From: an uncultured archaeon
GTDB taxonomy: Archaea > Asgardarchaeota > Thorarchaeia > Thorarchaeales > Thorarchaeaceae
Assembly (NCBI GenBank): GCA_964458565.1
Contig: CAYWJO010000003.1
Span: 78,675 to 142,674 of the forward strand
DNA length: 64,000 nt
Direction of reading: 5' to 3'
In this document: in pieces, positions 4,881 to 44,300 of the stretch
Layout: the number at the start of each line of letters is the position of its first letter
How positions within the stretch are numbered: position 1 is the stretch's first letter
Translations under genes and position numbers: made by a program
The notes under the pieces: generated by a model
What the model saw: only the letters and a program-made list of their open reading frames with translations
Database searches by the model: none
What the model was told of the DNA's origin: nothing

Positions 4881-6085
4881 TCTAGCTTTGCATTAAGCTG
4901 GTTCAATATATCAGCAATTGCACTATCTCGTTCATGCGTCTTAAACCATTCACGATAAAGGATGGCGACAGCATTCTTGGTTAATAGATCGATATCTCTT
5001 ACTCCATATTCCTCTATATTTGATTGGACCGGGAATTTTACATAGTAACCCTCATTATCGTCCCCCACATACTTTCGAAACATTCGATCTCTAGCTACCC
5101 ACCACCATACTATTTGCGGGGTCTCATCAAATGAATGTAGTCGACACAGAATGCTATCAATAGCTCGCAGTTCATGGGTCCATGTTTCAATATACGCACT
5201 TTCACTAAGTCCACTTAATCGAAGGAAGATTCGTGGATTATCATACACTCTGTACGCTCCAATCTCAGCCTTATCAAGGATGACTCGAGCAGTTTCTACA
5301 CCAGGAATTTTTGATTGTTTTCTACATAACCAAACAGCTTCTCGGATCAGAGGGACTTTGAAATCATCAGATGCTGCGTTTGATGTAGCTAACATCCCTA
5401 GAAGCGTTGAAAGGATGAAGAGTAAGGAAAGTGAGAATGCGAAGATGGGAGTAACGAGGGGAATAAATTGAGTGTCAATTTGTATCGCATAGAGTGGCAA
5501 GGTAATCTGACCAAGAAGGATAAGCAGCGGAGCATAAAAGAGCCAAAAATAACCATTCGGAGCTAATCTCACATATTCACGAAGGTACCTGCGTTCCAGT
5601 TTTGAAACTTCTTCGATATCCATCTGAAACGGTTTGTATTCCCAATCGGGTGCGTGATAGATAATCTGGCCCTTTGCGTGGCTACCGATTATAATTCCAA
5701 CAAAAGCGATGATTAATGGGAGTCCCAAGTATATTGTCAAAATCAGAAAGATGTTATCGGAATTACTTGGAAAAATCCAATCTGACATCAAATATCCAAT
5801 GGGTATCAGAGTAGCGGTAAGTATGAAACTAAGAATCTTGTGAATTTTAATGGATTTGTATATTACTGGCTCCACCATCATCTTGTATCGCTCACATTTC
5901 TGGATTGGCACACGCTCTTTAAGGATTGCTGAGAGAACTAAGATTGAAACGACCCCAATCTTTATTAACAAATTTTCCAATATTAAATTCACAATTGTTA
6001 ATAATTTTGGAGAGATATTAGTGATAAAAATTGGAGATAAAGCACCAGATTTCAAGACAATTACAGAGAATGGAGAGAAATTCAA
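4877..6085 (-). CDS. polytopic membrane protein, unknown function (alternative start at 5882)
   Basis: 402-aa ORF with many TM helices. The track start at 6085 overlaps the Bcp gene on the opposite strand. An internal ATG-ATG (MMVEP) at 5882 would remove that overlap. Confidence 0.45.
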   Translation of the reverse strand: MNFSPFSVIVLKSGALSPIFITNISPKLLTIVNLILENLLIKIGVVSILVLSAILKERVPIQKCERYKMMVEPVIYKSIKIHKILSFILTATLIPIGYLMSDWIFPSNSDNIFLILTIYLGLPLIIAFVGIIIGSHAKGQIIYHAPDWEYKPFQMDIEEVSKLERRYLREYVRLAPNGYFWLFYAPLLILLGQITLPLYAIQIDTQFIPLVTPIFAFSLSLLFILSTLLGMLATSNAASDDFKVPLIREAVWLCRKQSKIPGVETARVILDKAEIGAYRVYDNPRIFLRLSGLSESAYIETWTHELRAIDSILCRLHSFDETPQIVWWWVARDRMFRKYVGDDNEGYYVKFPVQSNIEEYGVRDIDLLTKNAVAILYREWFKTHERDSAIADILNQLNAKLE

Positions 6086-13774: not shown

Positions 13775-14896
13775 GTGAAACCAATGCTAGAAGACAAATG
13801 TGTACGATGTGGATCTTGTGTGAAATTTTGCCCGATGTTCGATGCGATCGGAGAGGAGCAATATTCGCCGAGAGGAAAAATATACCTTCTTCAAGTGATG
13901 GATTTAATTGAGGACGACGAGGAATTGGCTAAGGAATTCAGGAAAGTTCTCTTTGAATGTACCATGTGTGGTCGATGCTCAGAGATTTGCGCATCTGATG
14001 TGGATTTATTGAGGATTTGGCATGAACAGAGATTGAAGGCATTTGAAACCGCTCCGGATGAATTTGAATACCTTGAATCATTAAGAAATTCTATTGCCAA
14101 TGTTAGAAACATCTATGGACTTCCTATGGATGATAGGGCAATATATTGGGCGGATGAGATCGAGCAGGATATTCCAGAAATTGAAGATAAAATATACGAG
14201 AGAGGGAAGACCGCAGATGTTGCAGTCTTTCTCGGTTGCTTAATGTCTTTCAGAAGCACTCAGATTGATGTAGTAAGGACAATGATTCAGGGATTAGAGA
14301 GGGCAGGAATCAATTATCTTGTCATGGGAGCTGAAGAATTCTGCTGTGGGCATCCATTAGATCTTATGGGAGATGAGAAAGGGGCTGAGGAACTTAGAGA
14401 ACATAACAAGGGAATCCTGAAGGATATGGGTGCGAAGAAGGTTGTTACGGCATGCCCGGGATGTCTATATCAATTGAAGAACAATCACAAAGTTGAAGGC
14501 ATTGAAGCCCTCCATCATACTCAACTATTTGATCGTCATTATGAGAGCCTACCTACTCTTACATTATCAGATGATTTCGTGTATCATGATCCGTGCGAAC
14601 TTCATCGATTATGTGACGTCAAAGTCGAACCTCGTTCTCTACTAGCAAAAATGGGAGTTAATTATAGAGACCTAGAAGTTAGTTGTTGTGGAGGTGGTGG
14701 ACTTCTTCGAATGACAGACCCAGAAGTCAGTGACAAGATAATTGAACTTCGCAAACAAAAGGAAAGGCTTGCAAATACAACTGTGATAACTGCATGTCCA
14801 GCTTGCAGAGAACAACTCCTCAATGCAGAGATTGCCACTGTCGACATCTCAGAACTCCTAGAGTACAATCTTCGAACTGAGGAGGAAAATACATGA
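13775..14896 (+). CDS. Fe-S oxidoreductase with two 4Fe-4S ferredoxin motifs and two CCG domains (GlcF/GlpC/HdrD-like)
   Basis: 373 aa. CxxCxxCxxxCP motifs occur twice in the N-terminal half. Two cysteine-rich CCG domains (CCGHP...CPGC; CCGGGG...CPAC). This is the architecture of glycolate oxidase Fe-S subunit GlcF. Confidence 0.75.
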   Translation: MKPMLEDKCVRCGSCVKFCPMFDAIGEEQYSPRGKIYLLQVMDLIEDDEELAKEFRKVLFECTMCGRCSEICASDVDLLRIWHEQRLKAFETAPDEFEYLESLRNSIANVRNIYGLPMDDRAIYWADEIEQDIPEIEDKIYERGKTADVAVFLGCLMSFRSTQIDVVRTMIQGLERAGINYLVMGAEEFCCGHPLDLMGDEKGAEELREHNKGILKDMGAKKVVTACPGCLYQLKNNHKVEGIEALHHTQLFDRHYESLPTLTLSDDFVYHDPCELHRLCDVKVEPRSLLAKMGVNYRDLEVSCCGGGGLLRMTDPEVSDKIIELRKQKERLANTTVITACPACREQLLNAEIATVDISELLEYNLRTEEENT

Positions 14897-16233
14897 AACT
14901 GAAAGACATAGCAGCAGCTGCTAATGCCTCGATGTATCATAGACCGGACTTCAAGAAAATTAAGGGAGCATTTTATCCTCGAAATGAAGATGAACTAGCT
15001 GAGGCTGTAAAAAGAGCTAGAGAGGGGGGGTATGAAATCACACCAAAGGGTGGAGGCTCAGGACTAAGCGCAGGATGTACTGGAGGCAATGCAGAACGGG
15101 TAATTGTGAGTAGTCTAAAAATGGACAAAGTATTATCAATCTCATTGGAAGAAGGTCATGCTGATGTCCAAGCGGGAATTACACCAGTTCAGTTAAACGA
15201 TATACTCGCAACCATGAGTATGAAATTTCTAGTAACACCAAGTAGCAGAGATATCGCTACTATCGGTGGACTTATGGGAACTGATGGAGGTGGGAACGAT
15301 ACATGGGCAAATGGGACAATGCGGGATAATACCCTTCATGCAAAGGTAATTCTATACGATGGTACAAAGTTGAAAGTCGGATGGGATGGAGTCGAGTGTG
15401 AAAATGAAGTCCTTGAAGCGGCATTGAACAAGAAGGGGATGAACCTTAATGACTTAGCAAGTTCGCATGGAACAATAGGTTTTGTTTCAGAGCTCAGGGT
15501 CAAGATTAAGCCACTTCCAAGGAAGAGACTCTTGGGGGGATTAGCAGAATATGAGAATGCTAATGTCCTTGGAGAGGTATTGACTACGATGATAGAAGAG
15601 AAATGTCCTATCACTTATGGTGAGGCGATTGTCGAAGCACATCCTGATGTGAGGGGTGATCTCAAACCACCACTACTAATTCTGGAATTTCCGTTCGACT
15701 ATTCGTGTGATTTGAGAGAAATCACTCATTTTGAACCATTGACAAAGACAGAACTTAATCGAATGAAGGAGATACGACTCAAACTTCCAAAGCGGAATCC
15801 GAAGGATGGAGTTCAAGTGGCTCTCTTTGAAGGGTATGGATTCCATGGAGAAAATTTATTGAATATGCAAGAAGGGATCTCAGAGATAAATTCACTATTG
15901 CAGCAACATGATTTTGTACCCTTCGCAAAGTCAGGTCATGCCCCTAGCAAATGGTACTTGGGAGATAATCATCCTGCATATGGAATAGTCATGCACTCCA
16001 GAGAGATCCGTCCGCAGAACAAATCGGGAGTGGAAATTTACAAAACTGTTGAAGCATTAGTCGCAAAATGTCAAGAGCTCGGTATCACTCCTAAACCTGA
16101 ACACAAATGGCCTTTTGCGGATGAGGTCAAGAAGGCAAGGCTACAAGAACTTCGTATGATTCTAGGTGAAAGAATGAACTCATTTATTTTTGAACCCAAT
16201 TGTGCTTCGGAAACCCTTGCATCCATGGTTTAG
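14893..16233 (+). CDS. FAD-linked oxidase (GlcD / D-lactate dehydrogenase-like, FAD_binding_4)
   Basis: 446 aa, ATGA-coupled to the upstream Fe-S subunit. FAD-binding PCMH-type domain motifs (ITPKGGGSGLS, TIGGLMGTDGGG). Confidence 0.7.
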   Translation: MKLKDIAAAANASMYHRPDFKKIKGAFYPRNEDELAEAVKRAREGGYEITPKGGGSGLSAGCTGGNAERVIVSSLKMDKVLSISLEEGHADVQAGITPVQLNDILATMSMKFLVTPSSRDIATIGGLMGTDGGGNDTWANGTMRDNTLHAKVILYDGTKLKVGWDGVECENEVLEAALNKKGMNLNDLASSHGTIGFVSELRVKIKPLPRKRLLGGLAEYENANVLGEVLTTMIEEKCPITYGEAIVEAHPDVRGDLKPPLLILEFPFDYSCDLREITHFEPLTKTELNRMKEIRLKLPKRNPKDGVQVALFEGYGFHGENLLNMQEGISEINSLLQQHDFVPFAKSGHAPSKWYLGDNHPAYGIVMHSREIRPQNKSGVEIYKTVEALVAKCQELGITPKPEHKWPFADEVKKARLQELRMILGERMNSFIFEPNCASETLASMV

Positions 16234-16253: not shown

Positions 16254-16808
16254 TCAATAATAAGTCCGTTTTGGCTTGGATAAGTTATGTTTCCGGACCT
16301 TTCTCCCAAAGATAAGTCCTGCAGTAGTAGCAATCAAGCCTCCCAATACGCCAGGGATAATTATTGGTAGAGTATCTGGACCGACACCACCCGCCATACT
16401 TGCACCAACAAACGCAATAACAATCGCAAGCGGACCTAGAAGGCCGCAATAGCAAGCAGCTTCATATTCCCCGGTTTTTTGAGAATATATGTCATGCCCA
16501 TATGCATCCTTTGCATAGATTGGAACCATGGTTCCTCTGTAAGCAAATATCGCTGCAGCTATAAAGAAGACTCCGAATACACCACCAATTAAAGCGAGAA
16601 TGCTGTTTTGATAGAACATGAGAGATATGCCAACTTCAGCGAAGCCAATTATTCCCGCTATCCCAAATAAATTTCCAGCAGTTCGAGATGTTACACCCAA
16701 TACTAATGCCTCCTTAATTACGAATAGCAATTGTGTCAGTAGCAGAGCCTTGATATCTACTTTATCATTTTTATTTTGTGTGAAGATTGGAAGAATACTT
16801 TCAGTCAT
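16254..16808 (-). CDS. small polytopic membrane protein
   Basis: 184 aa, Gly/Ala-rich, with 4-5 hydrophobic helices. Confidence 0.45.
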   Translation of the reverse strand: MTESILPIFTQNKNDKVDIKALLLTQLLFVIKEALVLGVTSRTAGNLFGIAGIIGFAEVGISLMFYQNSILALIGGVFGVFFIAAAIFAYRGTMVPIYAKDAYGHDIYSQKTGEYEAACYCGLLGPLAIVIAFVGASMAGGVGPDTLPIIIPGVLGGLIATTAGLIFGRKVRKHNLSKPKRTYY

Positions 16809-16820
16809 CCCTCTCTGTAG

Positions 16821-17996
16821 GTGCTTAAATACCCTTTACGAGACAAAAAGATGATAGAAATGGTTAAGCCGCACCGCAGTCCGAAAGGACTCTTTGACCC
16901 TTACTATGTACCAGAGAATATCCTACACAGGGATAGAGAACTCGATCAGATTGAAGGAGTCTATTCTGACTCTTATGAGAGCGAATACGGTGTGAACTGT
17001 CTTGTTCACGGAATATCTGGAGTGGGGGCTACTGTGTTTTCAAGGTATTTTCTGACAAAGATAGTACCTCAGCAATTTGAAGCTCATACAATCTATGTGG
17101 ACGCAAAGAGAAAAAGTCCTACTGAGATTGTGAGCGAGCTGAATGATAAGATTCACAGGTTGGCAAACAGACCTATTACCGTAGCATTCGATCTTGATGT
17201 TCTTTGGATGCAATTCAAGAGAACCGCCAGTGATACTTCCAAGAGGACTGTATTTGTTCTTGATAATGTTAATGAGAACAACGAGGAAATCTACACGAAG
17301 GTAGCACAACTCTCTAAGGAGATCAAAGCCAGCACAATCGGTGTGCTGAATAGTCACGATTACAGAATGCTGACGAAGGGCATGGCTACACAGATGGCAT
17401 ATGACTTTGAAATTCCACTTGACACATACACTCAATCCCAGCTTTATGAGATTATTAGAATGCGCGTAGAAGATACCTTTCCTTTGGGACTTACTGATGA
17501 GGTCATACGATACATCACAGATATCGTGCTTGAGTTTGATGCAGGAAAACCAAAGACCTCAATTGAAGCATTGAAAGCTCTCTGGCCTTTAGCACAGAAA
17601 GGAAAAGAGATTGACTCGGATATTGTAAGAGGTGCTACATCCAAGATTACATCATTCATTCAAGATCAGGATTACATGGATATTGTTGAAACCATAAGCA
17701 TGAACGACTTCATGACTCTGCTGGTTCTAGAAGCAATGAGCGAACATCTCATGCGATACAAGACAGAAACCTACATTGATAGGCAGACGTTGAATGAGCT
17801 CGTGATTATCAAGTTTGAAGAGCTTCAGGTCCGCTATTCCAATGAAGATATCGAGAGAAGCCTGCAGACTCTTATTTTTCAAAGCATTATCTTTGAATCA
17901 GGGTATTCGAGGAATCTCCTTTATGTTTTGGTACCACCTGAAATTCTTCACGATACCTCGCTCAGTTTAAGACGTGAATTAGCTCGCAGGAAGTGA
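16821..17996 (+). CDS. Orc1/Cdc6-like AAA+ protein with degenerate Walker A/B (probable pseudo-ATPase)
   Basis: 391 aa. N-terminus YVPENILHRDRELDQIEG matches the Orc1/Cdc6 lead-in. Walker A position reads GISGVGAT (Lys replaced by Ala). Walker B reads VFVLDNVNE (DE changed to DN). Sensor-1-like VLNSHD is present. The C-terminal region is winged-helix-like. Confidence 0.5.
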   Translation: MLKYPLRDKKMIEMVKPHRSPKGLFDPYYVPENILHRDRELDQIEGVYSDSYESEYGVNCLVHGISGVGATVFSRYFLTKIVPQQFEAHTIYVDAKRKSPTEIVSELNDKIHRLANRPITVAFDLDVLWMQFKRTASDTSKRTVFVLDNVNENNEEIYTKVAQLSKEIKASTIGVLNSHDYRMLTKGMATQMAYDFEIPLDTYTQSQLYEIIRMRVEDTFPLGLTDEVIRYITDIVLEFDAGKPKTSIEALKALWPLAQKGKEIDSDIVRGATSKITSFIQDQDYMDIVETISMNDFMTLLVLEAMSEHLMRYKTETYIDRQTLNELVIIKFEELQVRYSNEDIERSLQTLIFQSIIFESGYSRNLLYVLVPPEILHDTSLSLRRELARRK

Positions 17997-18040
17997 TCCA
18001 CTCTTTTGCGGTACAAGAATAGGGTTTTGTGTCCCCTATT

Positions 18041-28587: not shown

Positions 28588-29355
28588 GTGATGAGGTTGC
28601 CGCACTCTGACATGAAACTAGGCTTTCAGACAGCCGACAAGGCCATCCGGAGAACAGTGAGCACCGGAATAAAGGCATTAGACACTCTTCTAGATGGCGG
28701 TCTCGAACTTGGAATCATGCATCTCTTCTATGGCGACCGTAGTCTCTACAGGGACATCCTGAAGATGGCAGTACACATTCAATTACCAGAAGAACGTCGA
28801 GGTTTATCTAGTCCAACCATCGTCATCGATAGCGCCAATATGTTGAAGATTGAGGCACTCACTGAGTACGCCTTTGAATTTGACCTTGAACCGGAGTATG
28901 TGATGGATAGGGTCTATATCTCACGGGCATTCAATAGCTCACAGACTTACGACCTCGTGATGAATCAGCTCGAGTCGTTCCTAGAAAGAATCCCTGCAAA
29001 GTTACTGATAGTCTCAGGACTGCCGGACCTCTACCTCAGTGAAGGAATCGATGGAGAGGGGTTGCAGCAGATAACGCATATGGCAACCAAGGTGAAGAAT
29101 CTGGCTCTTCAGAGAAACATTGCTACCTTGGTCACCACACAACCTTCACCCAAGAATCCACGGTTTCCTGCCGGAGGAAAAGCACTGTCCAGCAGTGCAC
29201 AGATTCATGTTCATGTTGAGGAGTCAAAGTCCTATACACACTACACTCTTGCAAAGCATCCGCAGTTTCCGGTACGCAGAACCTCACGGGCAAAGACCAT
29301 AGATTTTGGTAGCACTCTTCCTCTATCCTACTTCCTCAATCAAGAGGAAGAATAG
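28588..29355 (+). CDS. RadB/RecA-superfamily protein with lost Walker A and B (probable pseudo-ATPase)
   Basis: 255 aa. TGIKALDTLLDGGLELGIMHLFYGDRSLYRD aligns with the RadB N-terminus (TGxKxLDxLLGGG...YGPPGSGKT), but GKT is replaced by RSLYRD. The Walker B hhhhD position reads LLIVSG. The C-terminal core (NIATLVTTQ) matches the RecA fold. Confidence 0.55.
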   Translation: MMRLPHSDMKLGFQTADKAIRRTVSTGIKALDTLLDGGLELGIMHLFYGDRSLYRDILKMAVHIQLPEERRGLSSPTIVIDSANMLKIEALTEYAFEFDLEPEYVMDRVYISRAFNSSQTYDLVMNQLESFLERIPAKLLIVSGLPDLYLSEGIDGEGLQQITHMATKVKNLALQRNIATLVTTQPSPKNPRFPAGGKALSSSAQIHVHVEESKSYTHYTLAKHPQFPVRRTSRAKTIDFGSTLPLSYFLNQEEE

Positions 29356-29373
29356 AGGGGGTGCGTGTACCCT

Positions 29374-32300
29374 CTACTTCTTGCCTGTGAGACTCTTCAC
29401 AAATTCATCAACCAGCTCACGTGAGAGATGCTCGGCTTGCTCCATGATAGTATCGATCTCGTGAGGTGGCACACCCTTCTCCTCGAGTTCTTTTCTCAAC
29501 TCTGCTAGTTCAAAGGGACTGAGTTTCTCATCAGGGCTAGCAGGTCGTTCTGGTAAGTAGTCCTCAGGTCGTTTATCAGCCATCCGTTTTGCTTCGGGTT
29601 CAGCTTTCATGATAGTGGATTCCATCTCTTCGTCCACATCGATCGGCTCATCGAAGTCGATTGGTGGTTTCTTAGGTCGGTCCTCATCAACAAGGAAGAT
29701 TGAGTCTTCTTCAGGACCTCGATAGTCGACTCTTGGGACCTCACCCTCTTCAACTCCTGCAACCGTTCTTGAGGCCTGATCTGCAACCTCCTCGAGTACC
29801 TTCTCAACACTCTTACCATCACGTCGTGCTGCTCTGATTGCTTCCTGATAGATGACTTCTTTCACGAAAGCAGCCTGCTCACTCAACCTCATCTTGGAGA
29901 TGTCAGCCTTGAACTCGTCAAGCTCATCAGGGCTCAGATGAGTAAGAATAGAGAGCTGTACGAGTAACTCACCCATCTCTGGCACTGCAACTATAACAGA
30001 TTCTGATGGCAGCTGGTCTGGTCTTCGAGTGATTTTGACCTGTTCAAAGGTATCATTGAATAGCTCAGCAATCAGTTGATCTCGCCTTTTAGCCTCATCA
30101 ATAGGCTTTGGAACCTTACCTTTGCCTAGAGCTTTAATCTGTCCATTGATCTGACGAAGTCTCTTTGGTACGCTTAGCACTCTCACGTACAAAGCACCAA
30201 GCAATAGTAGAATGAATACTATTGGAGTTCCATATGATGTGACAGTGGTCAGTGTGTCTTGAAATTCTGTGGGAGTTATTCCAACCAATAATTCGATATC
30301 ACCATCAACATGGTTAACGCGATAGATTCTAATATCAATAACAGAAGACACATCAGGAAGACCAATCGGAAAAAGAACAGGAGCTTCAATTGTTAGTCTG
30401 TAAATTCCATTTCCAATTTCTTCCCAAGATGTGACATTTACAACTTCGGGATTTGATGATATGACCTTAATATAAGCCCCAGTTATTCCATCGCCAACAT
30501 GACCGGGCCATGCATCATAGAATCTTAGCTCTACCGTAGTCGGTACAGCATAATTAATATTGATTCTATCCTCACTGTCCACATTGTTTGATGTAAAGGC
30601 AGTATCTGTGGGGACATCTATAATCGTGATGAATATGGTGATAATAGATTGAGTTCTGTTCGCAGTTCTGAGAGGGATTGTAAATCGATATCTAGCATCA
30701 TCAACTCTGAAAAGACTCGTATCAAAGGTGAAACTGTAGTTACCATTTCCGAGCTCAATAATGTCAAGAGGACTTGTATCATATACAGGATGATAGTATC
30801 TAGCATAATCAACCTCATCCAAGGTCCAATTGGCTCCTTCAACCCCTCCAATAAATGGTGTGTCCCATGGAGCAACTGTGGCATTATAAAATAATATCAC
30901 TGTGATAGAATCACCAAATGGCACCACAAGCTGAGTGGCATCCATACTGGAGTTACTGTACTTTGGCGGATAAACAACAATCTCCGTTGGAATGGATCTT
31001 ACCCTCACCCGAACTGTTCTAGGAATATAATCATAATTATCCTTTCTAAAGTCTACAGTTAGGGAATACTCTTCAGTACTTGGTTCGACAAGAGTGCTGT
31101 CAATGAAAATACCATATGTTCCATTCCCAAATGGCGTCGCATTGAATTTCCTATTCGCCCACTGGTATGTAACAGTTGCATTGATAACAAGTGATTCATG
31201 ATCCTCATCAACAAAATTGAAACCATAAGTTCCATTTCCACCCCAAAATATTGCGGGTATTTCTGGTGCTTCAACCAAGGTATGAATTGCTCTGATACTA
31301 AGGGTTGTTGTTGTGCTATTCGATGTGTATTCCTTGTTGAGTGGAACAGCAGATATTCTCAATGTATAGGTCTGTGCTGGATATTGACTGGTATCGATAG
31401 AGACATTGTAGTATCCCCAATAATTTGCTCCAAAAACTGACCGATTTAAGAGATATAGCGGATATGGTGTTCCTTCACCGATCAGGCTCATTGTTACAGT
31501 TGCATCATTTCTCCAATGTTCGTCAGGATTCTCTGTTTCATTGATATAAGGTGCATATACCCACACACCCACCTCAACAATCTGAGACCAATAGAAGTTC
31601 TCATCAGCAATGCTTTGTGAATTAATATCAAGCTGAACAACAGTCATAGTCTGTTTTACAACGAGAGTCATGATGATTGGTGAGATGAGATAGTTGTTCT
31701 TTGATGCTTCAATGACCAGAGTATACGTTCTAGAAGCCTCTGCATCATCAGTATCGAGGATAAAGGAATAGTTGCCTCCGGTTTCCTGCGTGAAGTATTC
31801 AGATTGCTCGCTACCAAAATCCCAAGTAATTAGTACATTTGCATCAATTACTCCTTCACCAGCATAGGGAGAGTCACTCACTTCTAGATTCACTCGGATA
31901 GTCACTTCAGAACCCCTAGTTGTATCAAGAGTGAAATCATCACCTGATGGATTAATACTCACAGGAATTTGGAGTATTGTCAATGTGACTGATTTTGTCT
32001 GAGTTATGTGATTCTCATAACTAGCAATTATCTGGATGGCATAGGTTCCGTGAGGTACTAGTTGTGTATCTAAGGAGAATGTGAAATTACCAGGAACTCC
32101 TGTAGCTATGAGGGGGATGTCTGAACCTAGAATCCAGCTATAGGTCAAATCACCAGCTAGGACTGGTCTACTGTGTACAGTATCATAATAGACAGCTGTA
32201 ATCGTCACTTCGTCTCTCCAGTAAACAGAAATACTAGAATCTGAAAGAGTAAGGTCGGTCTCTACTTGTTTAATTTCTATGTCGAAGTATACAGCAGAGA

Positions 32301-35300
32301 TTGAATAGCTGGACAGAGATAACACAATTTTGAGTATCTTTACACCATAGGGAATCGAAGTTGTCTGGAATGTAATGTTATAGAAACCACCAGAAATAGG
32401 TGTAACGTCAGATACACTCAACCATGTAACTGTACTACTTGCACCATCCACGAGAACATTCGCATCTGTGTCATTCAACCAAACCAGAATATAACCTTCA
32501 TCTCCAGCAAACCTGGATTTTGTTGATGATACTTCTTGAATACTCGCTTGACGCAAACGGACTTGGAAGGATACCTGTGATTCTGCCTCGTCATATGGAT
32601 ATAGGTTGAATGTAATTACAAGACTTTTGAGACCTGCAGCTCCCGCATCTAAAGTGTTCACAGTAATAAGATACTGACCATCAAACAGAAATTCAATATC
32701 CCATATGGCAGGTTCAGAGCCACTACTGTAGACAACAGTAATTGATGATGAAACGTCGTTAATATAATGACGAGGATCAGGCAAAGTGTGATCTATATCG
32801 TTTAGAGTAATCGTTATAGACACGTTATCCTTTAGAGGAACTGTAGAAGGTACCGGTGAGTCAGGAGTTATGGATGTGCGAATTCCTCTTACAGATCCAA
32901 CCATTGGTACTCCGGAGATGTCTCTATAGAAGGGTCTCGATGAATCAATCCAATCAAGGTTAAGACGGAAAGTGAAAATACCAAAACTTCCCAAGAATGT
33001 TGTACTTACATCGATGTAATATTCACCAGGCAATGCTCCAGAATATACCCAGTAATTAGCGCCCCATGTTAGAGTAACTTGGTCACAAGCTAAAGTGATT
33101 TGGGTTAATGGAATGACAATACCGTTCCCGGTTGTATCGTCAGTATAATTGAAAGTGAGCCTCATGAGATCTTGCATTGGAGTGTCAGGAGAAAGACCAA
33201 TCGTGATTCTAGCCACTCGTTTAGTTATTGTAACACTGACAGGGGTGCTGTCACTCGCATAATATGGTGCACCTCCAGACCATGTGACCGTGATCGTTAA
33301 AATACGAGTCAGAGTCGCATTGGCGATCTTTGTTGTATTAATTACTATTCTGAAATAATTGATTTCAGGTGTAATTATATAATTAGACGGACTGAGTAAT
33401 GTACCTCCATTGTATATGATTACATCACCAGAATCAATGATAATATCATTCCCAGTTCCTACATCAGTAAATGCTAATGTGAAGTTGAACAAATCAAGAT
33501 ATTTCGTCTGCTGAGGAGGATCCTTCACATCTACATTAGTAGGTCTTGTCGTTACGGTGATTCGAACACTGATGACAGCTTCGTTGTAGTAGTATGGTGC
33601 ACCGATTTTGTTAGCGAAGACGAAGATCGTATATTGTGCTGGAGCACCTAAAGCAGAAGTATTCAGATTGATCTGATATTCACCTGCCGTTAGAGCATCC
33701 CAAGTATAATACATCAATGCGATAGGTGAACCATTACTGTATTCAAGGCTGATTGATGCACCATCAATTCCAATACTTGCATCAGTGTCAAGGTACAGTA
33801 CAACGAATGGATTGAGAGGTGATTCTGTAATATCATTGTAAGCGGTAGGTTGAGGAGATTCTTCAAGATCTATTGAAGCAATCCTTCCTCTGATTGAGAA
33901 TGCAATGTAAAGTTCATCAGCAGCATAGAATGGCTCAAGATTAACATAAGACATACGAACGTGCAAGGTGTAATTTATTCCACTTCCAAATCCACGTCCT
34001 GCAGTTTCAACCTGCAGTTCATATTTCTGTGAATCCGAATCCCAAGTAATTGAATAAACATAATCAGGTCCGGTGGTGTTGAGGATTTCGAAAGATGTGT
34101 AAAACGTTGTGCCATTCACTATGGTCTGAAGAGTGAGAATATCTTGATAGTCTAATATCACATTCATTATGGTATCAATACCAATCCGCCCAACAGGCTC
34201 ATTCGAAAGTATTGTTGATCGATATCTAACACTAAACTGGCGGATAGACCATGCATCTTCGACATATTCTGAACCCGTATATGTGAAACTAGCATTAAGG
34301 GTAAATAATCCAGGAGTAGCAAAATAGGATGAGTCCAAGTCTATTTCGAATACACCTGAACCCAAGTAATTCACGGAGTAAAATCCTGTTAATGGATAAT
34401 TACCAGAGATGTTAGAGTAGAATAATGCAAAATCACAATCAGAATCTAGAATACCAGTAGTAGTAAGCCCTGCAATGTCTTGATACTCTACTGTGAACAC
34501 TACACTATCACCAAATGGTGTTGGGTCAGGAGATTGAAACTCGACTATCGATGCTCGTAGTGTGACGGTGATTCTGATTGTAATTAATGTTCTATTTGAG
34601 TAGTAAGGCGCACCAGCCCAAGTCACACTCAAAGTGAATGTCTTTTGACCTATCCCACCAAATTGTGCAGTATCGAATTCAATTGTAAATTCTGTCACAC
34701 CAAAGATTTCAGGTGTTTCGAACAAGCTGGTTGAGATATCCATGTGAGTGGGATCGAAGGATATAGCACTCTCTCCACCACCTGACACATCAAGGAATGA
34801 GAAGGTGAATGTAGCGTTTTCGCCATATGCAGTATTGATTGGTGGTGATACTGAAACAAGTGTGTCGCGGGGTATGATGCTAACCTTTGTAGTAGACGAA
34901 TCATCACGATAATAAGGAACAGACCCATCCCAAATGACTTCAACGGTGATTTGTAAGTTGTTTATCAATACTGTACTTAGGGTTACTGAATTGATTGTAA
35001 CCTCAAATGATGTACCTGTTGTACCATTCAAAGTATAATCTACAACCTGAGTAAGCAGAACACCTTGGTCGTAGATTTTGATGTCAGAATCACTAATTTG
35101 CACCTTCTGACCGGTTACTGCATCAGTGAAAGCAAAAATGAATGTCACATCCTCGAGATAATTGGTAGCTGATGGAGCAACAAGTATCTCAACGTTTGAT
35201 GTTCGTTTCACAACTTGTGCTGTTACTGTTAGGTTTGCCATTGCATGATATGGAATACCTGAGTAACTAGCACTTACTTTCAGACTTGTTGCACCCAATC

Positions 35301-38300
35301 CATCCAATGCAGTGGATAATACTGATACGTCGTAGTAACCGGGAGAGCCAGGGGTGACCAAATAGTCAACATCTTGAACCAAGGTCGTTAAGCCTTTATA
35401 GATCGAGACTGTACCGCCAGAGATAGTGGCATCAAGATCCACATCGTAGTAGCGAATCGTGAAATTAACATATTCAAGGTAAGGTGTATCGCTTGGAGAG
35501 ACTGAAAGGTCAAGAGTCGAGTATCGCGCTCTAGTTTCAATATCCGCAACAGTAGTTCGACTACTATAGAATGGTGCAGCATTTTGGTATGATAATTGAA
35601 TTATCAGACTGGTTACATTACCAGGAACCATTGCTGGATGATTATAAGTCTGAACTGTTAGTAAGTAATAATTGTAGGGTGCTCCAAGCCAAGACATGCT
35701 GGAATACCAGGTACCCGGACTCAATATCTGCACTGAAACATCGTGGTCAATGTTGTCTAGAGTCAGGAAGTCCTGATAATAGAGTATAATGTCAACTGAG
35801 GTGTTGTATGCATTTCTTGGAACCGGGTCAGCAGTCAGAAAAGTTGTTCGATACCTAATCTCCAAAAATCTTGATGCTGTAACATCAGGCATGAAGAATG
35901 TATAATTTGTTAGATATACTCGAAGACCAAATGTTCCAGGAGTTGTATAATATGATGCATTGAAATCGACAGAATATTCACCATCTCCAAGAGGTGTGAC
36001 TGAATAGTAGGAGAATGGTATATAGATGGACCCAAGAACATCATAGAGAGTTAGATTCACATTATTATCGATAGGACCACCAGTGCCCGTAACATCTGTC
36101 CAAATCACTGAAAACACAACATTATCACCAAATGGAGTGGGAGAAGGAGTCTGATATTCCACTACAGTTTGCCGCAATGTCAACGTGACTGAGATTTGCC
36201 GCCCATATCGATCAGCGTAGAATGGTGCTCCATCCCAAGTCACACTGAGTGTGAAGGATTTCTTCTCAATAGGTGCAGTGAATTGATTAGTATCAAATGA
36301 TACTGTGAATGTCTTGTCAGTATCATTATAGAACAATGAGAAATCTGCGAGACTGAGTATAATCTCCATTGTTGTTGAATTATAAGCAATCGGAACACTT
36401 CCTGCGCCAGTGACATCATCGTATGTGAATATGAAAGTAGCATTCTCACCATAGGGAGTAGGAGTAGGTGGTGTAACAGAGAGTATTGTGTCTCTTGGAT
36501 TCACACGTACTGCAATCACATCAGTTCTATTAGTGTAATATGGATCTACTCCAGGATTCCAACCAATGTAGACATTCATCAAGATGACGCCTGTGGTTCC
36601 AAATATGGTGTTGTTAAATGAGATAGAGTAATTTCCAGGTTGACCAATAACCTCTGTTATAGTCACCTTTGACAAATCTACCGTATAACTTTGGAATTCT
36701 ATAGATATGAAAACGTTACCACCTGGTGGATTCCCAGATGTTGTATTATCAATCCCAATACCTGTGAAGAAGTCACTGTAAAAGAACGTGTAAGTCATAT
36801 TCTCAAGATAGGGTGTCGGTTCAGCAGTGATTAGTAGAGCATATGCAGATTCTGTACCACCAATATTGACCTGGGTGTTGATAGTCTTATTTTGATAGGT
36901 ATAAACAGGACCAGTCCAGTTGAAGAATATCTTCAGACCAAAGAGACCTGGACCAAATTGATTTGCAGGTACTTTGATTACGTAGTAACCAGGTAGAGTT
37001 CCATTGAATAGGTATGACGTAACTGGTAGTCCATTGATATCTTCTACTCGATGGAGCACATACTTTGATTTGATGCCAACTTGATCATCAAGGTCACCGT
37101 AGAACACATCAATCGTGATATTAGCATTGAAGTAAGTAGGCTCGGGTGCATTAACTGTTCTAAAGTCCGTGTTATGTGTTCTGAGAGAGATTGTAAGATT
37201 GAATAGACCAAATTGATAGTTTGAGCCCTTTGAGAAATTAAAGAGAACAACGACGTTCTGTTGTAGGGGATCATCCACCTCAGTTGGGAGTGTGATTCGA
37301 TATCTACCTTCACCCAAGAGGTATTGCATAATAACAGGACGCCCAAACAGAGTATCCCATCCAGTGTTCAATTCGAAAAGTCCACTATCATCAATAGGCA
37401 AATTATTGTCAATATCCCAATATTCTACATAGAATACAGGATCATTCCCAACAGGGATATCTAATGCACCAACAGTTGGAATTGCATAGGTATACACAAT
37501 TCGGACTAGAATCCGGAAGTTACTCAATGTTCTTGCAGCATGAATAGTTGATTCTGCAGTGAGGTCAAAGTAGTGAATACCCCTATCAAGACCACCAACA
37601 AGAAGTGTTACATTATAGAGTCCGGGGGTACCTGGAAATTCGTAATAAGATATGGAAATACCTGTAGCAGTTATTGTAGCACCAGATATTCCAGCATTTC
37701 GGTCGATATCAGTATAGTTCAGAGTAATCCAGACATCGCTTCCATATGGAGTAATGACTTGCGGATAATTGTCTGAAGATAGGAAGCTCAGAGCCTCACG
37801 ATATTCAAAAATTATTATCAGACTTGTTGAACCGTAGCGAGAGTCTGAAGGAATAACACGAATAGTAATAGAATAAGATCCTTTCTTTTGGAAGAAAGTA
37901 GCAGAGATACTCAAATTATATCTTCCATCAGATAAGAATGAAATTGATGCAGGAAATGTGTATCCTGTCCCGTTTGTTACTGTGAATTCGCCCTGAGTAA
38001 TTCCGTTGATAGGTGCACCATTATATTGGTTCCCGTCCTCACTTACATTGAAACGGATGATTATTTGGAAATCATCATCAATTGGGTAAATCAGATCTGT
38101 TGGCTCGTTGTAAAGATAGGTTTTCAGACTGTGAATGACAATATCAAAAACATAGTTCCCTGGATGGCCATATATTCCACTCATCGTCATTGATAGTGTT
38201 ACAGTTTCAGTCCCTACATTCCAGATGTTTGTTGGAAGTACTAAGTCTAGTTGAGTATTTGAGGGAGAGTAAGGTGCATACCCAGAACTAAACGTGAATC

Positions 38301-41300
38301 CAGCAACAGAGCTATTATCGAGTTGAGCACCTGTATCTAAATCAGTTATTACAATTGTGAGTGGTGTATCATTACCATATGGACTCACTAAATCACCAAT
38401 CACAGTAATTGCAGTGTAATGAGTTCGTATTATGATTGAGAAGCTATAATCATCTGGACTCTCATAGATTCCTGTCATATCCAATCCAAGTGTAACGGGA
38501 TGAGATGCAACAGACCATGTGTCTGTAGCGAGTAGTACATCAAGATCAAAGATTCCAGGGGAGGTTTCATTATGGTTCCCCGTAGCCCAAACAAATCCAA
38601 ATGATCCAACATCCGAATAATCTAAGATAGATACAGTATCAAGATCTGTTAGTAGGATAGTAACTGCAGTTGTATAGCCATATGCTGTGACAAAGTCACC
38701 TTGAACAGTCATAGCAGTGTGATGCTTTCGAATAGTGATCGTGAAATCATAATCAGTAGGATCATAATACTCGCTACTGCCAACCATTGTGACACTGAGA
38801 GTGACTATTTCATCTCCAATACTCCAGAGATTTGTGGGCAAGTTAACATCAAGATCACTTGGCGTTACCTCACTATATGGTGAAGGAATAGATGTGAAGT
38901 TGAAATAATAGACTGAGGTATGAGTTAATTCGGATGCTGTATCCAAGTCAACAATGACAATTATTAATGGAGTGTTGAAACCAAATGGAGTGAGAAGGTC
39001 TCCATCAACGCTGAGAGACGTGTAGTGCTTTCGTATAGTCACAGCGAAATCATAATCATCAGGACTACTGTAGATATTATTCATAGTCAAGGTCAAGGTC
39101 ACTGTATCAGAACCAATTACCCAATCATCTGTTGTAAGAGTGTAATTGAGATTTGTTATACCTGAGCTTTTTCCTTCAAATTCCGAAGACGATGTAAATG
39201 TGAACGAACTGACGAATGTATGATCAAGATTAGTACCTGTATCGAGATCAACAAGGACTATGGTAACATGAGTGACTTCCCCATAAGGTGTAATAAAATC
39301 ACCCTGTACTGACATAGCTGTGTGATGTTTTCTGACTAAAATCTCAAAACTGTAGTCAGTTGGATTGAAATAGTCACTATCCATGATAACGCTAAGCACC
39401 ACAGTTTCAGGTCCCAGGGTCCAATCATCAGTTGTTAATGTAAAATCAAGACTGCTGATTCCGGGTTGATTATCACCCTCAACTTCCCAGGAAGTGAAAG
39501 TGAATGATTCGATCTCATTTTGAGTGAGTAACAAGCCTGTATCAACATCCGTAAGGACGATTGTTACATCTGTGGTAAACCCGTAAGGTACCAGGAAATC
39601 AGCCTGGACTCCAACAACAGTGTAGTGTTTTCTTATTGTAACCACGAAATCATAATCGGAAGGACTTTCATAGTCACCAGACATAGACAGACTTAGTGTA
39701 ACCGACACCTGACTAACGGACCAACTATCAGTGTCAAGTGAGTGATTGAGAGTTGATGGAGAACCTGGATCTGAACCATAACTTGACAGGAATGAATAAC
39801 TACTCACGAAGGTATCATCCAACTGAGTACCAGTATCAGTATCAGTCAAAACAATAGTTAGATTTGTATCATAACCAAACGGTGTGACCAAATCCCCTTG
39901 TATGTTTGTTGATGTGTAGTGTTTCCGAATCTCAACATTGAATTGATAGATATCTGGAGCAGCGAATATTGGATTAGACATTTTAATTGTAAGATTGACA
40001 ATCCGTGTCATCACTGGCCAACTACTAGTATCTAAAGTCACATCCCAACTTGTTGCTTGCTCAAACTGAGAGCCACCACTCCAATTGAATGTATAATTAC
40101 CGACATTACCAAGTGCTACAGATGCTCCGGTATCCAAATCTATGATGCTGATTGTGAGAGGTGATGTACTACCAAACGGTTGAATGAAATCTCCAGAAAC
40201 CGAAGCAGACGTGTAATGACCTCTAATTGTGACATTAAATACAAAATTATCAGGTGAGTCATATGATGAGCTATCCACAACAGCGAATGTGGTGACCGTT
40301 CTAAGCCCCACAGGCCATGGACTTGTATCTAAAACAAAATCAAATGTTGAAGTAGCACTTGGATTCGCATCCTGATAACCCCCTGTCCATTGGAAACGTA
40401 CTAATGTAACATCGTCAGTTGCAAGCTCAGTACCTGTATCAGTGTCTAAAACAATGATCCTGACATCTGTGTCAAGTCCATGTGCAGTTGTGAAATCCCC
40501 TGTAATCATAAGGGCTGTGTAGTGCACACGAATCTGGACATCAAATTGATAATCATCTGGAATAGCATAATTTGGATTTGAAAAGCTGACTGAAAGGGTG
40601 ACAGTTTCAGCGCCAACAAGCCAACTACTGGTGATAAGGGTGACATAATTATTTCCAGGTGTCGTAACATCCTGAGTGCCATAGGAAGATGTGAAACTCA
40701 ATTGACTAACATTGAGTATTCCAATATCATCACCCGTATCAAGATCAATTATCTTTACATTGATGGGAGTATTAACTCCGAAAGGTGTTGTCAATCCTCC
40801 ACTTACAGACACTGCAGTATAATGAGTCCGAATAGTTACATCAAATGAATAATCAGTTGGATTAGAGTAGTTAACATGACTCATTAAAAGTGACAATGTG
40901 ACTACTCTGGTACTAACACTCCAGTCAGATGTGTCCAATAAAACATTCAACGAACTACCATCAAATGGTTGTGAATCACCAAACCATGAAAGTATGAAGG
41001 AATCAACATAGGTTTCATCCAACTCTATACCGAGATCAGTATCAATTACTACAACAGTGAGATTAGTTTCTAATCCATATGGTGTTATGGTATTACCAAC
41101 AATTGATGCTGTGGTGTAATGTTTTCTGAGAATGAAAGTGATTTCTGTGTAACCTTGCTCCAAGAAGAAACCAGATTTGGTGGCATTGAACGCAAATATG
41201 TGTTCGCCAAGATTGAGACCTGAAGTGGATACTGAGATATTATATTTTCCACCGCCCTGTGCTTCAACGGTAACAGGACTACCATCTGAGAGCGTTATTG

Positions 41301-44300
41301 TCGCACCCGTTATGGGTAGGCCTGTATATGCATTGGTAAAGACCAGAGTAGCCTTGAAGTCAAATCCAACTGGTGTAGTGGAAACATTGAGGTAGGTCAA
41401 TGAAGTATGATGATAGAGTTGTAGGTCAAAATGAGTAGTGGCATCATTATAGTATGGGTGTGATGATTGTATATCTATCCTCCAAGAAGTTGCAGTTCCT
41501 AGATCAGAAGTATTGACTGCAATTCCGTAATATCCTGTGCCATAATCGTTGAACGTTTTCGCTGTTGGTGAACCTGAAACCGTCCAATTCATTGAAACAG
41601 TCGCACCAGTGATACTCTGGGAGTTCACATCGTCATCGAGATAGACCTCTACGTAGAGCAAGTCTCCAGCAAATCTGAGTGAGACCTGATCGCTGACAGC
41701 ATCACCAGGAGAAACAAGAGTTAGAGATGAATCATGTTTCACTAGAAACTCACGTTCATAGAGGCCTGTCTTATCACTAACAGATGCGCCCGTATCATTA
41801 TAGTATACTGAAACAGTCCAAATCCCAGCTGGTGCTGTTGAATCAATTGTCTTGGTGACTGAGTGTTCTGGAGAAGTACGTGTTTGTTGAGATCCTCTCT
41901 GAACAAATGTGGTCGGTGCAAACATATTCTTGTATTCGGTGGAAATCCATCCACTTACACGTTGGACACCTGCTATTCGGACCTCATCTATTTTTCCTGT
42001 GTGATAAGCCTCACCTGCTGAAACCTCTGAGGGGTCTAAATACCCACCACCAATACCCCAATCAGTTGTGAAAGCTAGATTTAGAGAGCTTGCACCAGTA
42101 TGGACTGTTGTGCTCGTGTCATCAACTCCGTTTATGAAAATCTTATTATTTGAAGGAGCGTCAGCATCCATATAGCATGTATAGTAATACCATCCAGATG
42201 ACCAAGATGTAGTAGTTGTGTATTTAGTGTATTCTGAGCCACCAACCTCAAATCCAAATGCCAGACTACCAGGAGAGTTTGTGGATTCGGAATAGTCAGC
42301 GCCTATCAGCATGATATGGAAGTTGTCATCACCATCCAAGTACTTCGACATCAGGAGTCTTGAGGGACTAGAAGTTGAACCCCACGAATCTGCTATGTAA
42401 AACCATCCAGAAAGTGTTAGATCACCACTTAGGTCTAGACCTTCTGAAGCAGCGATAGATATCCAGTCATTACCATCAAAGTCCTGACCATAACTATGAC
42501 CATCTCTCATCCCTACTGTCCTGTCTGTACCATTTCCAGTTCCAGTATAATTGCCAATTGTTGAGTCATAGAAGGCATTACCAAATGTTTCGTCTGTATA
42601 ATCTTCTGAGAGATGCCATACTGCATCATAATTATTAGTCCAGACCTCCGTGGGCTGCTCAGTTGGACCAATCACAGGATTCCCGTAGTACATATACAGG
42701 GTGTTGCTAAGTGTACTGGTTAGATTCGCTTTCACCCAAGCTACAAGTGCACCAGAATCATATCGCTCAATTTCGTGAGACAATACTTTGCCAATACTGT
42801 CTGTGAAGACAATATCATCACCATCAGACTGGGCACGAGTTCCTAAATCCGTATCAGAGAAACTCACCATAACTGGGAAGTTTGTCACATCTGCATCAAC
42901 CTGAGATGCGAGGATAGTTAGGACTTTTCGATATTGAAACGATGGGACATGCCATGTTGTACCGGGGGTACCAGATGTTGCGGAGGTTTCATACCAGACT
43001 GTATCAGTAGGATCTGATAGTACGAAACCAACCTTTGCATTTTCAATCCATGGAGTTGTTGCTCTGAACTGAGCCACATCATTGATATCAAATATAGCAG
43101 TATCTGACAGGCTCTGCCCATTGATTCCTAATTGGACGTTTTGAACATAATTCCAGCTCTGGAACTTAATCTCCCAAACGCCCCAAATGTCAACCGCAGA
43201 TGAGAATATAGTGAGCTTTCCACCAGTATAATCCCAATCTGTACCTTCAATCTTTGCTTGACCAATAGGATTAGTCACCGAGGTGGGAATCCACTCAGTA
43301 ATTGGATAGTTAACGACAAAGTCCATTGAATCAGTTAAAGCAGGAGGAGAAACAAGGATATTAGCTGTCCAATCAACCAAACTCGAATTGGTCACGAAGA
43401 AGGAAGTTCCTTCTTGCATATTCTCATCAAGAGACGAACCAGTTCCTATGAAGTCCATGCTGAGTGTGATACCAACATCAATCGGGCTAGTCGAGCTTGT
43501 TGAAATCAGGAATTGCACCTGTTCGTCAGCGGACCAACCTACGGTGTTTGTATTCTCGGAACCAACAGAGTAGAATGTATCAGGACTATATTGATTATTG
43601 AATTCGGTTTCTATCCAACTTGTTGATAGAAACATTGTCGTCATTCTGAGCTCATCAATTGTCCCATTAAAGAATCGATCCAATACCGGATTATTTTCAT
43701 CAATCATTTGCCAATTTCCAATAGTAAAGTTCAATGTAGAATCTTCAGGAGTGACTCCATTCTTTGTATCTGTTTGAATAAGACTTCCATCAACATATAT
43801 ATTCGATTCAGCAGTGGCAGCACTCCATGTCCACACTAAATGATGCCAGTTCTGTACGGTCACGCCGCCTGCATCAACTGAAGTAGCTGTACTATAATCT
43901 GTGCTGTATCTTATTCTGAAGTTGGTTCCTTGAACAGCAAAGTGAATTATCGCATCAACTGGATTAGTATTAGGGGCTTTTGAGAAGATTCGATCGTCAT
44001 CTGTGTCATTATGAAATATCCATGCACTGATGGAGAAACTTGACCAATCGTCTGTAGCAATTTGTCCAACACTTAATACATCATCATCACCATCGAAATT
44101 GAGACCATAACCCACCTGCCCAGCAACAACATCATTAGAAGACATTGAACCATTCGAAAATCCATCATGGTTGTTCCATGTACTATCAAAGATTGTGCCA
44201 CTGGGATTATCGTCCATATGTTGAACCATCTCGTAATTATTCCATATATTGGTGGAATCCAAATCAACTGAAGATCCACAATAATGCATTCTGATTACAG

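Follow-up and report, generated by a model that had tools for sequence, protein, structure and literature searches.

Catalytically inactivated paralogs of Orc1/Cdc6 and RadA beside giant surface-protein genes in Thorarchaeota: one ancestral gene block and one rearrangement

Orc1/Cdc6 and RadA are core information-processing ATPases, and the described systems closest to the locus studied here are their archaeal members and the non-catalytic proteins related to them. Archaeal Orc1/Cdc6 proteins, such as Cdc6-1 of S. solfataricus (2qby_A) and Cdc6 of P. aerophilum (1fnn_A), have a three-domain architecture. On the recombinase side, archaeal RadB retains the Walker A motif, and Csm2/Psy3 of the Shu complex stand, together with eukaryotic RAD51 paralogs, as examples of non-catalytic or mediator proteins. 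Saccharolobus Orc1-2 is presented in one report as a non-replicative paralog that acts as a regulator of the DNA-damage response (PMC6061795). In this study, we analyzed a stretch of 64,000 nucleotides, hereafter the window, which comes from the chromosome of an Asgard archaeon of the Thorarchaeota type (contig CAYWJO010000003.1 of assembly GCA_964458565.1). In this window two genes for motif-degenerate P-loop NTPases, one Orc1/Cdc6-like (Orc-like) and one RadA/Rad51-like (Rad-like), each converge on a minus-strand gene for a giant surface protein.

The original prediction took this recurrence as two independent pairings that, if such genes are rare, are unlikely to have arisen by chance. Comparison with relatives leads to a different history: the recurrent arrangement reflects shared ancestry and one rearrangement, not two independent recruitments, and the statistical argument loses its footing, as it rests on an independence that lacks support. 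Both small proteins are class-restricted, selected and catalytically inactivated paralogs, one of Orc1/Cdc6 and the other of the RadA ATPase core. The explanation that we consider probable overall is that conserved dead paralogs with roles in DNA transactions came to face the giants through one ancestral gene block and one transposition within a subclade.

The coordinates, strands and convergent geometry that had been predicted were confirmed. The Orc-like gene lies on the plus strand at 16821..17996, where the longest open reading frame (ORF) encodes 391 amino acids (aa); its probable start is 16860 (M14), the one used by most orthologs. Its stop codon is separated by 44 bp from that of giant1 (18041..27619, minus strand), which encodes a type-I surface protein of 3192 aa and of the G1 type. 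The Rad-like gene (28588..29355, plus strand; 255 aa), whose start is uncertain in that the database homolog P0114 begins at 28612, is separated by 18 bp, stop to stop, from giant2 (29374..46173, minus strand), which encodes a G2-type surface protein of 5599 aa. Two minus-strand genes intervene between giant1 and the Rad-like gene: gcvH (27750..28232), for a GcvH-like lipoyl-carrier protein of 160 aa (Pfam GCV_H, 7.6e-35), and a gene (28264..28464) for a 66-aa Zn-ribbon protein with a weak Ogr_Delta match. The Zn-ribbon protein is a conserved partner upstream of gcvH (32-73% identity in relatives), and the divergent intergenic region at 28465..28587, which measures 110-196 bp in relatives, is a putative shared promoter region for the Zn-ribbon/gcvH unit and the Rad-like gene. 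About 60 relatives were compared; species representatives of the GTDB were scanned with an alignment of the Rad-like protein, which yielded 76 loci, and the proteins of the window were mapped by tblastn. The relatives' loci carry labels of the form L001.

The assignment of the first small protein to the Orc1/Cdc6 family stands, on the basis of both profile and fold. Its score of 77 bits against TIGR02928 is below the cut-off of 181.3, and with the equivalog models, whose cut-offs are 311-501, it reaches only 18-48 bits; a profile built from 12 orthologs matches S. solfataricus Cdc6-1 (2qby_A) with an E value of 9.5e-15. The AlphaFold2 (AF2) model is of moderate confidence overall, with a predicted local distance difference test (pLDDT) score of 71.6 that falls below 50 in the P-loop region, and residues 280-378 (pLDDT 84-94) are predicted to form a winged-helix-like unit of the order helix-helix-helix-strand-strand. 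A Foldseek search with this model gave full-length alignments to the archaeal Cdc6/Orc1 structures 1fnn_A (E 7e-12), 2qby_A, 1w5t_A and 2v1u_A, and an architecture of AAA+ base, lid and C-terminal winged helix is apparent in the prediction. The catalytic motifs have been lost, and the loss is conserved. Walker A, which aligns with GLTGTGKT of 2qby_A, reads GI[ST]GVG[A/M/R]T and lacks the lysine in 12/12 aligned orthologs, while Walker B reads VFV[IL]DN, a change of DE to DN in which D148 and N149 are invariant among the 12; the protein of the window itself has GISGVGAT and VLDN. Neither motif matches the consensus of active AAA+ proteins, GxxGxGK[ST] and hhhhDE. Mean column identity is 76-78%. 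More than 100 clusters of intact orthologs, 47-95% identical, were found, and in the word-seeded search the homologs were labelled almost solely Thorarchaeota or Promethearchaeota. From these sequence and model features, the Orc-like protein would most likely be a nucleotide-independent DNA-binding or scaffold factor. A role as an origin-adjacent initiator was ruled out for want of intergenic space: there is no room for an origin beside the gene, the spacers being 12 bp (16809..16820) and 44 bp in the window and ~35-130 bp in most relatives, with origin recognition box (ORB) motifs not searched genome-wide.

The second family label, RadB-like, has to be revised, as the protein is closer to the RadA/Rad51 core. 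Against the RadA model NF003301 it scores 78.7 bits (cut-off 259) and against TIGR02236 68.5 (cut-off 361), whereas the RadB models TIGR02237 and NF006861 give 37 and 34 bits, with cut-offs of 172 and 278, respectively. With 61.1 bits it passes the gathering score of 22 of Pfam Rad51 (PF08423), a family that all 13 aligned members match, and its profile matches Rad51 of P. furiosus (PfRad51; 1pzn) with an E value of 6e-26. The AF2 model is confident (pLDDT 87.2, predicted TM score 0.82), with residues 1-18 disordered, and Foldseek ranked the RAD51/RadA/Dmc1 core first, with a TM score of 0.81. In place of the P-loop GEFGSGKTQ the protein has YGDRxLHxDLL, with a 2-residue deletion (GDRSL--HEDL), and the Walker B acid is lost, LLIVSGLPD standing against LLIVDSL (hhhhD) of PfRad51; no ortholog has either the Walker A lysine or the acid of Walker B. 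The N-terminal helix-hairpin-helix (HhH) domain is also absent, and the protein begins ~12 residues ahead of the FxxA polymerisation motif, which aligns with residue 97 of PfRad51. FxxA itself is kept: it appears as GFxTAD, with F13, T15, A16 and D17 invariant in 59 sequences, and F13 and A16 align with F97 and A100 of PfRad51 (FMRAD). Mean column identity is 62-65%, and more than 250 clusters of intact orthologs, about 55-100% identical, were found, again labelled almost solely Thorarchaeota or Promethearchaeota.

The Rad-like protein of the window has dead relatives of its own, at least two groups of such paralogs being present within Thorarchaeota. The second group is 47-52% identical to the protein of the window; with a third group that is present in some metagenome-assembled genomes (MAGs), the range is 39-52%. 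These paralogs are likewise devoid of Walker A and B, and were found at L056, L058, L060-L068, L070-L074 and L076-L078 (e.g., L077:9989-10744). Their genes have a conserved setting of their own, with genes for an aminotransferase, a tetratricopeptide-repeat (TPR) protein and small unknown proteins, after which comes a gene either for an arrestin-like protein or for a protein of 558 aa that ends in a Zn-ribbon; no giant is present there. Hetero-oligomers could form where one genome encodes several dead paralogs of the RecA fold. As its conserved motif and predicted fold suggest, the Rad-like protein would most likely partner RadA, or its own paralog, in a non-catalytic role and dock via FxxA, much as mediators of the Rad51-paralog kind or filament caps do. 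Kinship with Elp4/5/6, which form the RecA-like ring of Elongator, was considered on account of a weak PAXNEB match (best E 0.0015) that covers ~25 N-terminal residues in 8/13 members; it was rejected because the Rad51 matches are full-length in 13/13 members and the fold search returned mostly RAD51/RadA.

The gene order of relatives shows where each small gene belongs. In 45/49 species representatives of Thorarchaeota the order is CCG→ FAD4→ Orc-like→ ←gcvH ←Zn-ribbon Rad-like→ ←giant(s). The block opens with a gene for a CCG/4Fe-4S protein that is GlcF/HdrD-like (13775..14896 in the window, plus strand; Pfam CCG and Fer4_8), followed by that of its partner, the FAD_binding_4 oxidase FAD4 (14893..16233, plus strand; Pfam PF01565). 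An example is L001, from the Baja Thorarchaeota, in which CCG, FAD4 and Orc-like→ are followed by ←gcvH, a gene for a 67-aa protein (←), Rad-like→ and a gene for a 5021-aa giant (←); L085, with an Orc-like protein 60% identical to that of the window, has the canonical block as well. The Orc-like gene is displaced in the remaining 4/49 representatives. Of the two pairings in the window, that of the Rad-like gene with a giant is thus conserved in relatives, being kept in 54/54 assessable representatives with the giant's tail beginning 18-208 bp past the Rad-like gene by the coordinates of the high-scoring segment pairs (HSPs). The pairing of the Orc-like gene with a giant is seen in 0/49 species representatives and is confined to the subclade of the window; elsewhere its neighbor is gcvH (45/49). 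Among the other junctions, CCG→FAD4 is kept in 40/40, gcvH…Rad-like in 52/53 and FAD4→Orc-like in 32/42, the last being the junction most often disrupted in the block (10/42). Neighboring junctions are broken in 0-24% of loci, and Rad-like/giant and CCG/FAD4 alone are never broken. Farther upstream the block continues with genes for an M28 peptidase, malic enzyme, a nitroreductase and AhpC, and ~12 unrelated flanking genes are colinear. As these upstream genes are likewise syntenic, the region as a whole tends to keep its gene order throughout the class.

The Orc-like gene stands beside a giant in a single nested clade, made up of the window, L079, L080 and L081. The latter three come from different assemblies, carry Orc-like proteins 85-95% identical to that of the window, and have a G1-type tail converging on the Orc-like gene; this tail is 64-71% identical to the tail of giant1 and 51-53% identical to that of giant2. 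In L084, with a Rad-like protein 70% identical to that of the window, the 5' end of a G1-type giant is followed by gcvH, the Zn-ribbon gene and the Rad-like gene, on which a G2-type tail converges. A neighbor-joining (NJ) tree of the Orc-like proteins, rooted on L082, places the Orc-like/giant state within that one nested clade, and the basal loci L085/L024 and L059 have Orc-like→gcvH. Moreover, giant1 is colinear, in a single HSP of 2195-2578 bits, with the ~3170-aa giant that adjoins the Rad-like gene in L008, L012-14, L018, L032-34, L039, L044, L050 and L053, and one transposition therefore explains the second junction. In the simplest history, the starting state was Orc-like→ [←gcvH ←ZnR Rad-like→] ←G1 ←G2, where ZnR is the Zn-ribbon gene. 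In one local transposition, the G1-type giant swapped places with the 1.7-kb segment of gcvH, Zn-ribbon and Rad-like genes, all orientations being kept, which gave the present state, Orc-like→ ←G1 [←gcvH ←ZnR Rad-like→] ←G2. The Orc-like and Rad-like genes are hence neighbors in one ancestral block, and the two junctions of the window are not two independent occurrences.

The root of the NJ tree, L082:10001-11134 (GCA_964589775.1), encodes the most divergent Orc-like homolog, 47% identical to that of the window, and lies after a malic-enzyme gene. No gcvH, Rad-like or giant gene is found nearby, and CCG/FAD4 is 8 kb off and oppositely oriented; the locus seems to represent an outgroup lineage whose block differs in part.

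The giants themselves are paralogs (BLASTP HSPs up to 845 bits). Both have a signal-like hydrophobic segment at the N-terminus, a single transmembrane (TM) helix close to the C-terminus (aa 2916-2948 in giant1 and 5310-5337 in giant2) and, beyond it, a conserved charged cytoplasmic tail of ~245 aa in giant1 and ~260 aa in giant2. Their sole Pfam matches are Laminin_G_3 in giant1 and DUF2341 in giant2, and off-diagonal HSPs reveal internal repeats. The giants beside the Rad-like gene in L001, L005, L007 and L042 are of the G2 type, being closer to giant2 than to giant1. In eight relatives (L013, L014, L018, L033, L034, L039, L050 and L053) a second giant follows in tandem, head to tail. At the other extreme, in two chromosome-level MAGs the convergent neighbor of the Rad-like gene encodes only 674 aa (L011:10766-12787, CP070761.1) or 1232 aa (L054:10772-14467, CP070658.1). 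These shrunken neighbors retain an extracellular module at the C-terminal end along with the TM helix and the conserved tail, so that what is conserved beside the Rad-like gene is the tail module, not the size of the gene. A search for homologs of the tail yielded nothing but short fragments from contig ends, with labels such as Thorarchaeota or Promethearchaeota, and was uninformative outside the class. The Rad-adjacent giants of L004:10779-20400 and L021:10768-20717 are broken across two to four reading frames, as either assembly indel errors or genuine pseudogenisation would produce.

Both junctions of the window are compact and contain a hairpin that includes the stop codon of the giant. 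The hairpin at 18008..18050 spans the Orc-like/giant1 spacer and the stop codon of giant1, with a minimum free energy (MFE) of −18.2 kcal/mol and z-scores of −5.2 on the plus and −4.7 on the minus strand. That at 29343..29386 (MFE −18.0 kcal/mol; z −2.6 plus, −3.3 minus) holds the stop codons of both the Rad-like gene and giant2 in its arms, TAGAGGG…CCCTCTA, and the same palindrome occurs in L084. In relatives, the stop-to-stop gaps at Rad-like/giant junctions range from −4 to 55 bp (17 junctions), with 113 bp in L010, and those between Orc-like and gcvH from 40 to 130 bp. A T4 tract lies 8 nt past the stop codon of the Orc-like gene, the only one of the four genes with a tract directly after its stop. 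No tract of T4 or longer is present in the gap for the Rad-like gene, giant1 or giant2; the first T4 tracts are reached inside the partner gene, after 136 nt (Rad-like), 193 nt (giant2) and 435 nt (giant1), and read-through into the partner gene is possible. Given this geometry and the hairpins predicted at the junctions, the 3' ends may plausibly overlap. The abutting ends and stop-spanning hairpins would most likely represent compact bidirectional transcript ends. A stem core, AAGAATAG(A)GGG…CCC(T)CTA, is common to both hairpins; its TAG is the stop codon of the Rad-like gene at 29343-29386, and the TAG in the same place at 18008-18050 ends no gene. The Orc-like/giant1 hairpin could be left over from an earlier junction of Rad-like and G1, but the match is too short to tell, and its register relative to the giant's stop codon differs.

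Several other explanations of the locus were weighed. That the small genes are pseudogenes decaying beside large genes by chance would agree with the destruction of their ATPase motifs, and decay in orthologs was one of the refutations that the original prediction named. In both families, however, the orthologs are intact and conserved: more than 50 species have the ORFs undamaged, many positions outside the catalytic motifs are invariant, the Rad-like fold is predicted with confidence, and the motif losses are common to all orthologs and thus ancient and stable. Conservation data rule the pseudogene reading out. The proposal that the dead NTPases serve as adaptors, chaperones or regulators of the giants' tails, one being kept per giant by selection, draws on more. 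The Rad-like gene adjoins a tail-bearing gene in every assessable representative with stops abutting, this adjacency outlasts the shrinkage of the neighbor in L011 and L054 to a protein that keeps the TM helix and tail, the Orc-like, Rad-like and tail-bearing families all appear restricted to Thorarchaeota-type genomes, and in the rearranged subclade each giant faces a dead NTPase. Yet the Orc-like gene faces gcvH in nearly all representatives and a giant in none, the second giants of the eight tandem pairs have no NTPase gene between them and the first, the second dead Rad-like group has no giant neighbor, and the unrelated surrounding genes are just as syntenic. A mirror-tree test on 37 loci, which is weak and confounded by the G1/G2 paralogy of the tails, points the same way: the positive control CCG/FAD4 gave a raw r of 0.88 and a partial r of 0.67, far above Rad-like/tail (0.57 and 0.32), which is comparable to gcvH/tail (0.61 and 0.36), and Orc-like/tail gave 0.35 and −0.20. 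Within this weak test, neither Rad-like/tail nor Orc-like/tail showed co-evolution in excess of other pairs. Both folds, furthermore, are those of DNA transactions, and interaction motifs of the DNA-repair type are kept. The adaptor or regulator role that had been suggested is therefore unlikely.

A regulatory use of the 3' overlap is the next alternative, in which transcription of the Rad-like gene, and in the clade of the window also of the Orc-like gene, into the 3' end of the giant would control giant mRNAs by antisense or interference. The tight gaps in relatives and in the window, the lack of a T4 tract in the Rad-like/giant2 gap with the first tracts lying well inside the partners, and the hairpins over the stop codons would all suit it. 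Tight convergent spacing, on the other hand, is general in compact archaeal genomes, the Orc-like/gcvH gaps of relatives are also short, and the hairpins may merely terminate or stabilise both transcripts; we regard such control as quite unlikely. It has also been considered that the Rad-like protein modulates homologous recombination among the repetitive tandem giant genes and thereby generates surface variation, comparable to VSG switching in trypanosomes, to which RAD51 paralogs contribute according to one report (PMC3170485). From lineage to lineage the flank examined holds 1-2 giants, which may be G1 or G2 and span lengths of 674 to >5000 aa; the giants carry internal repeats, the locus has been rearranged, and the Rad-like protein keeps FxxA, the motif for docking to RadA/Rad51. 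But a trans-acting factor needs no gene adjoining its target, and the other Rad-like paralog, encoded elsewhere in the genome, is just as devoid of ATPase motifs, which leaves this idea very improbable. Taken more broadly, a functional tie of the Rad-like protein to tail-bearing giants, whether as a tail partner, a cis-encoded antisense or termination partner, or a recombination modulator, also appears unlikely; if true, it would explain why the abutment remained unbroken through shrinkage of the giant to 674 aa and through local rearrangement.

Some observations weigh against the preferred account of one ancestral block, one transposition and roles in DNA transactions. The proposed biochemical roles are drawn from conservation of motifs and fold alone. 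For the transposition, both direction and mechanism are deduced from fragmentary contigs and from an NJ tree built on a single protein, and L079-L081 and L084 show one junction apiece. The Rad-like/giant junction is unbroken in 54/54 loci, compared with breaks in 10/42 for FAD4/Orc-like and in 4/49 for Orc-like/gcvH, and this pair could reflect selection rather than inertia. Moreover, each of the two giants has a dead NTPase gene opposite it once more after the rearrangement, as would also be expected under selection.

Other genes of the window were noted in passing. Between FAD4 and the Orc-like gene lies a minus-strand gene (16254..16808) for a 184-aa multi-TM membrane protein that has no Pfam or NCBIfam match. 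Among the loci searched, L079-L081 alone have homologs of it, L080 carrying as many as three (tandem paralogs at L080:1981-3455), and it is an insertion at the FAD4/Orc-like junction specific to the subclade of the window. Upstream of the block, two minus-strand genes in tandem (9490-11472 and 11594-13603) encode proteins of ~660 aa each, one M28-peptidase-like and the other with no Pfam match at the threshold used; a single M28 gene occupies this position in most relatives, so the pair looks like a local duplication. Toward the far end of the window, a 778-aa protein (57375-59711, minus strand) has a C-terminal region that is EAP30/Vps36-like, at 26.2 bits against a gathering score of 26.8, and may, judging from this sequence match, be related to ESCRT-II. 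Its gene adjoins that of an SPFH/flotillin-like protein (59812-61146, minus strand).

With regard to significance, the supposed general link between pseudo-ATPases and the giant surface proteins of archaea gives way to ordinary gene history, and the statistical argument for it is removed. What emerges are two undescribed, class-wide dead paralogs of core information-processing ATPases in an Asgard lineage; our literature searches found no prior description of the dead paralogs or of the gene arrangement. Such proteins are candidates for the kind of non-catalytic subunit that came to be widespread in the ORC and RAD51-paralog complexes of eukaryotes. The analysis also defines a family of giant type-I membrane proteins of Thorarchaeota with a conserved cytoplasmic tail.

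Set beside the known systems, the Orc-like protein shares with archaeal Orc1/Cdc6 the three-domain architecture, as judged by profile and fold. In contrast to them, it has A, M or R in place of the Walker A lysine and DN in Walker B in all orthologs, is confined to Thorarchaeota-type genomes in the word-seeded search, and reaches 77 bits where the family model demands 181. Similar to Saccharolobus Orc1-2 as that report presents it (PMC6061795), it is an extra paralog with no obvious link to an origin. The Rad-like protein has the fold of the RadA/Rad51 core (TM 0.81) and passes the gathering score of Pfam Rad51; it differs in its replaced P-loop and missing Walker B aspartate, FxxA being kept. 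With archaeal RadB it has in common the absence of the HhH domain, but it has no P-loop and its scores with the RadB models are far under the cut-offs. Its comparators among non-catalytic or mediator proteins are the eukaryotic RAD51 paralogs such as XRCC3-RAD51C. As for the gene pair, it resembles the persistent synteny blocks of prokaryotes that have no functional link, lying as it does within more than 12 functionally unrelated genes; unlike such blocks, the Rad-like/giant junction was never broken in our sample, which is otherwise true only of CCG/FAD4.

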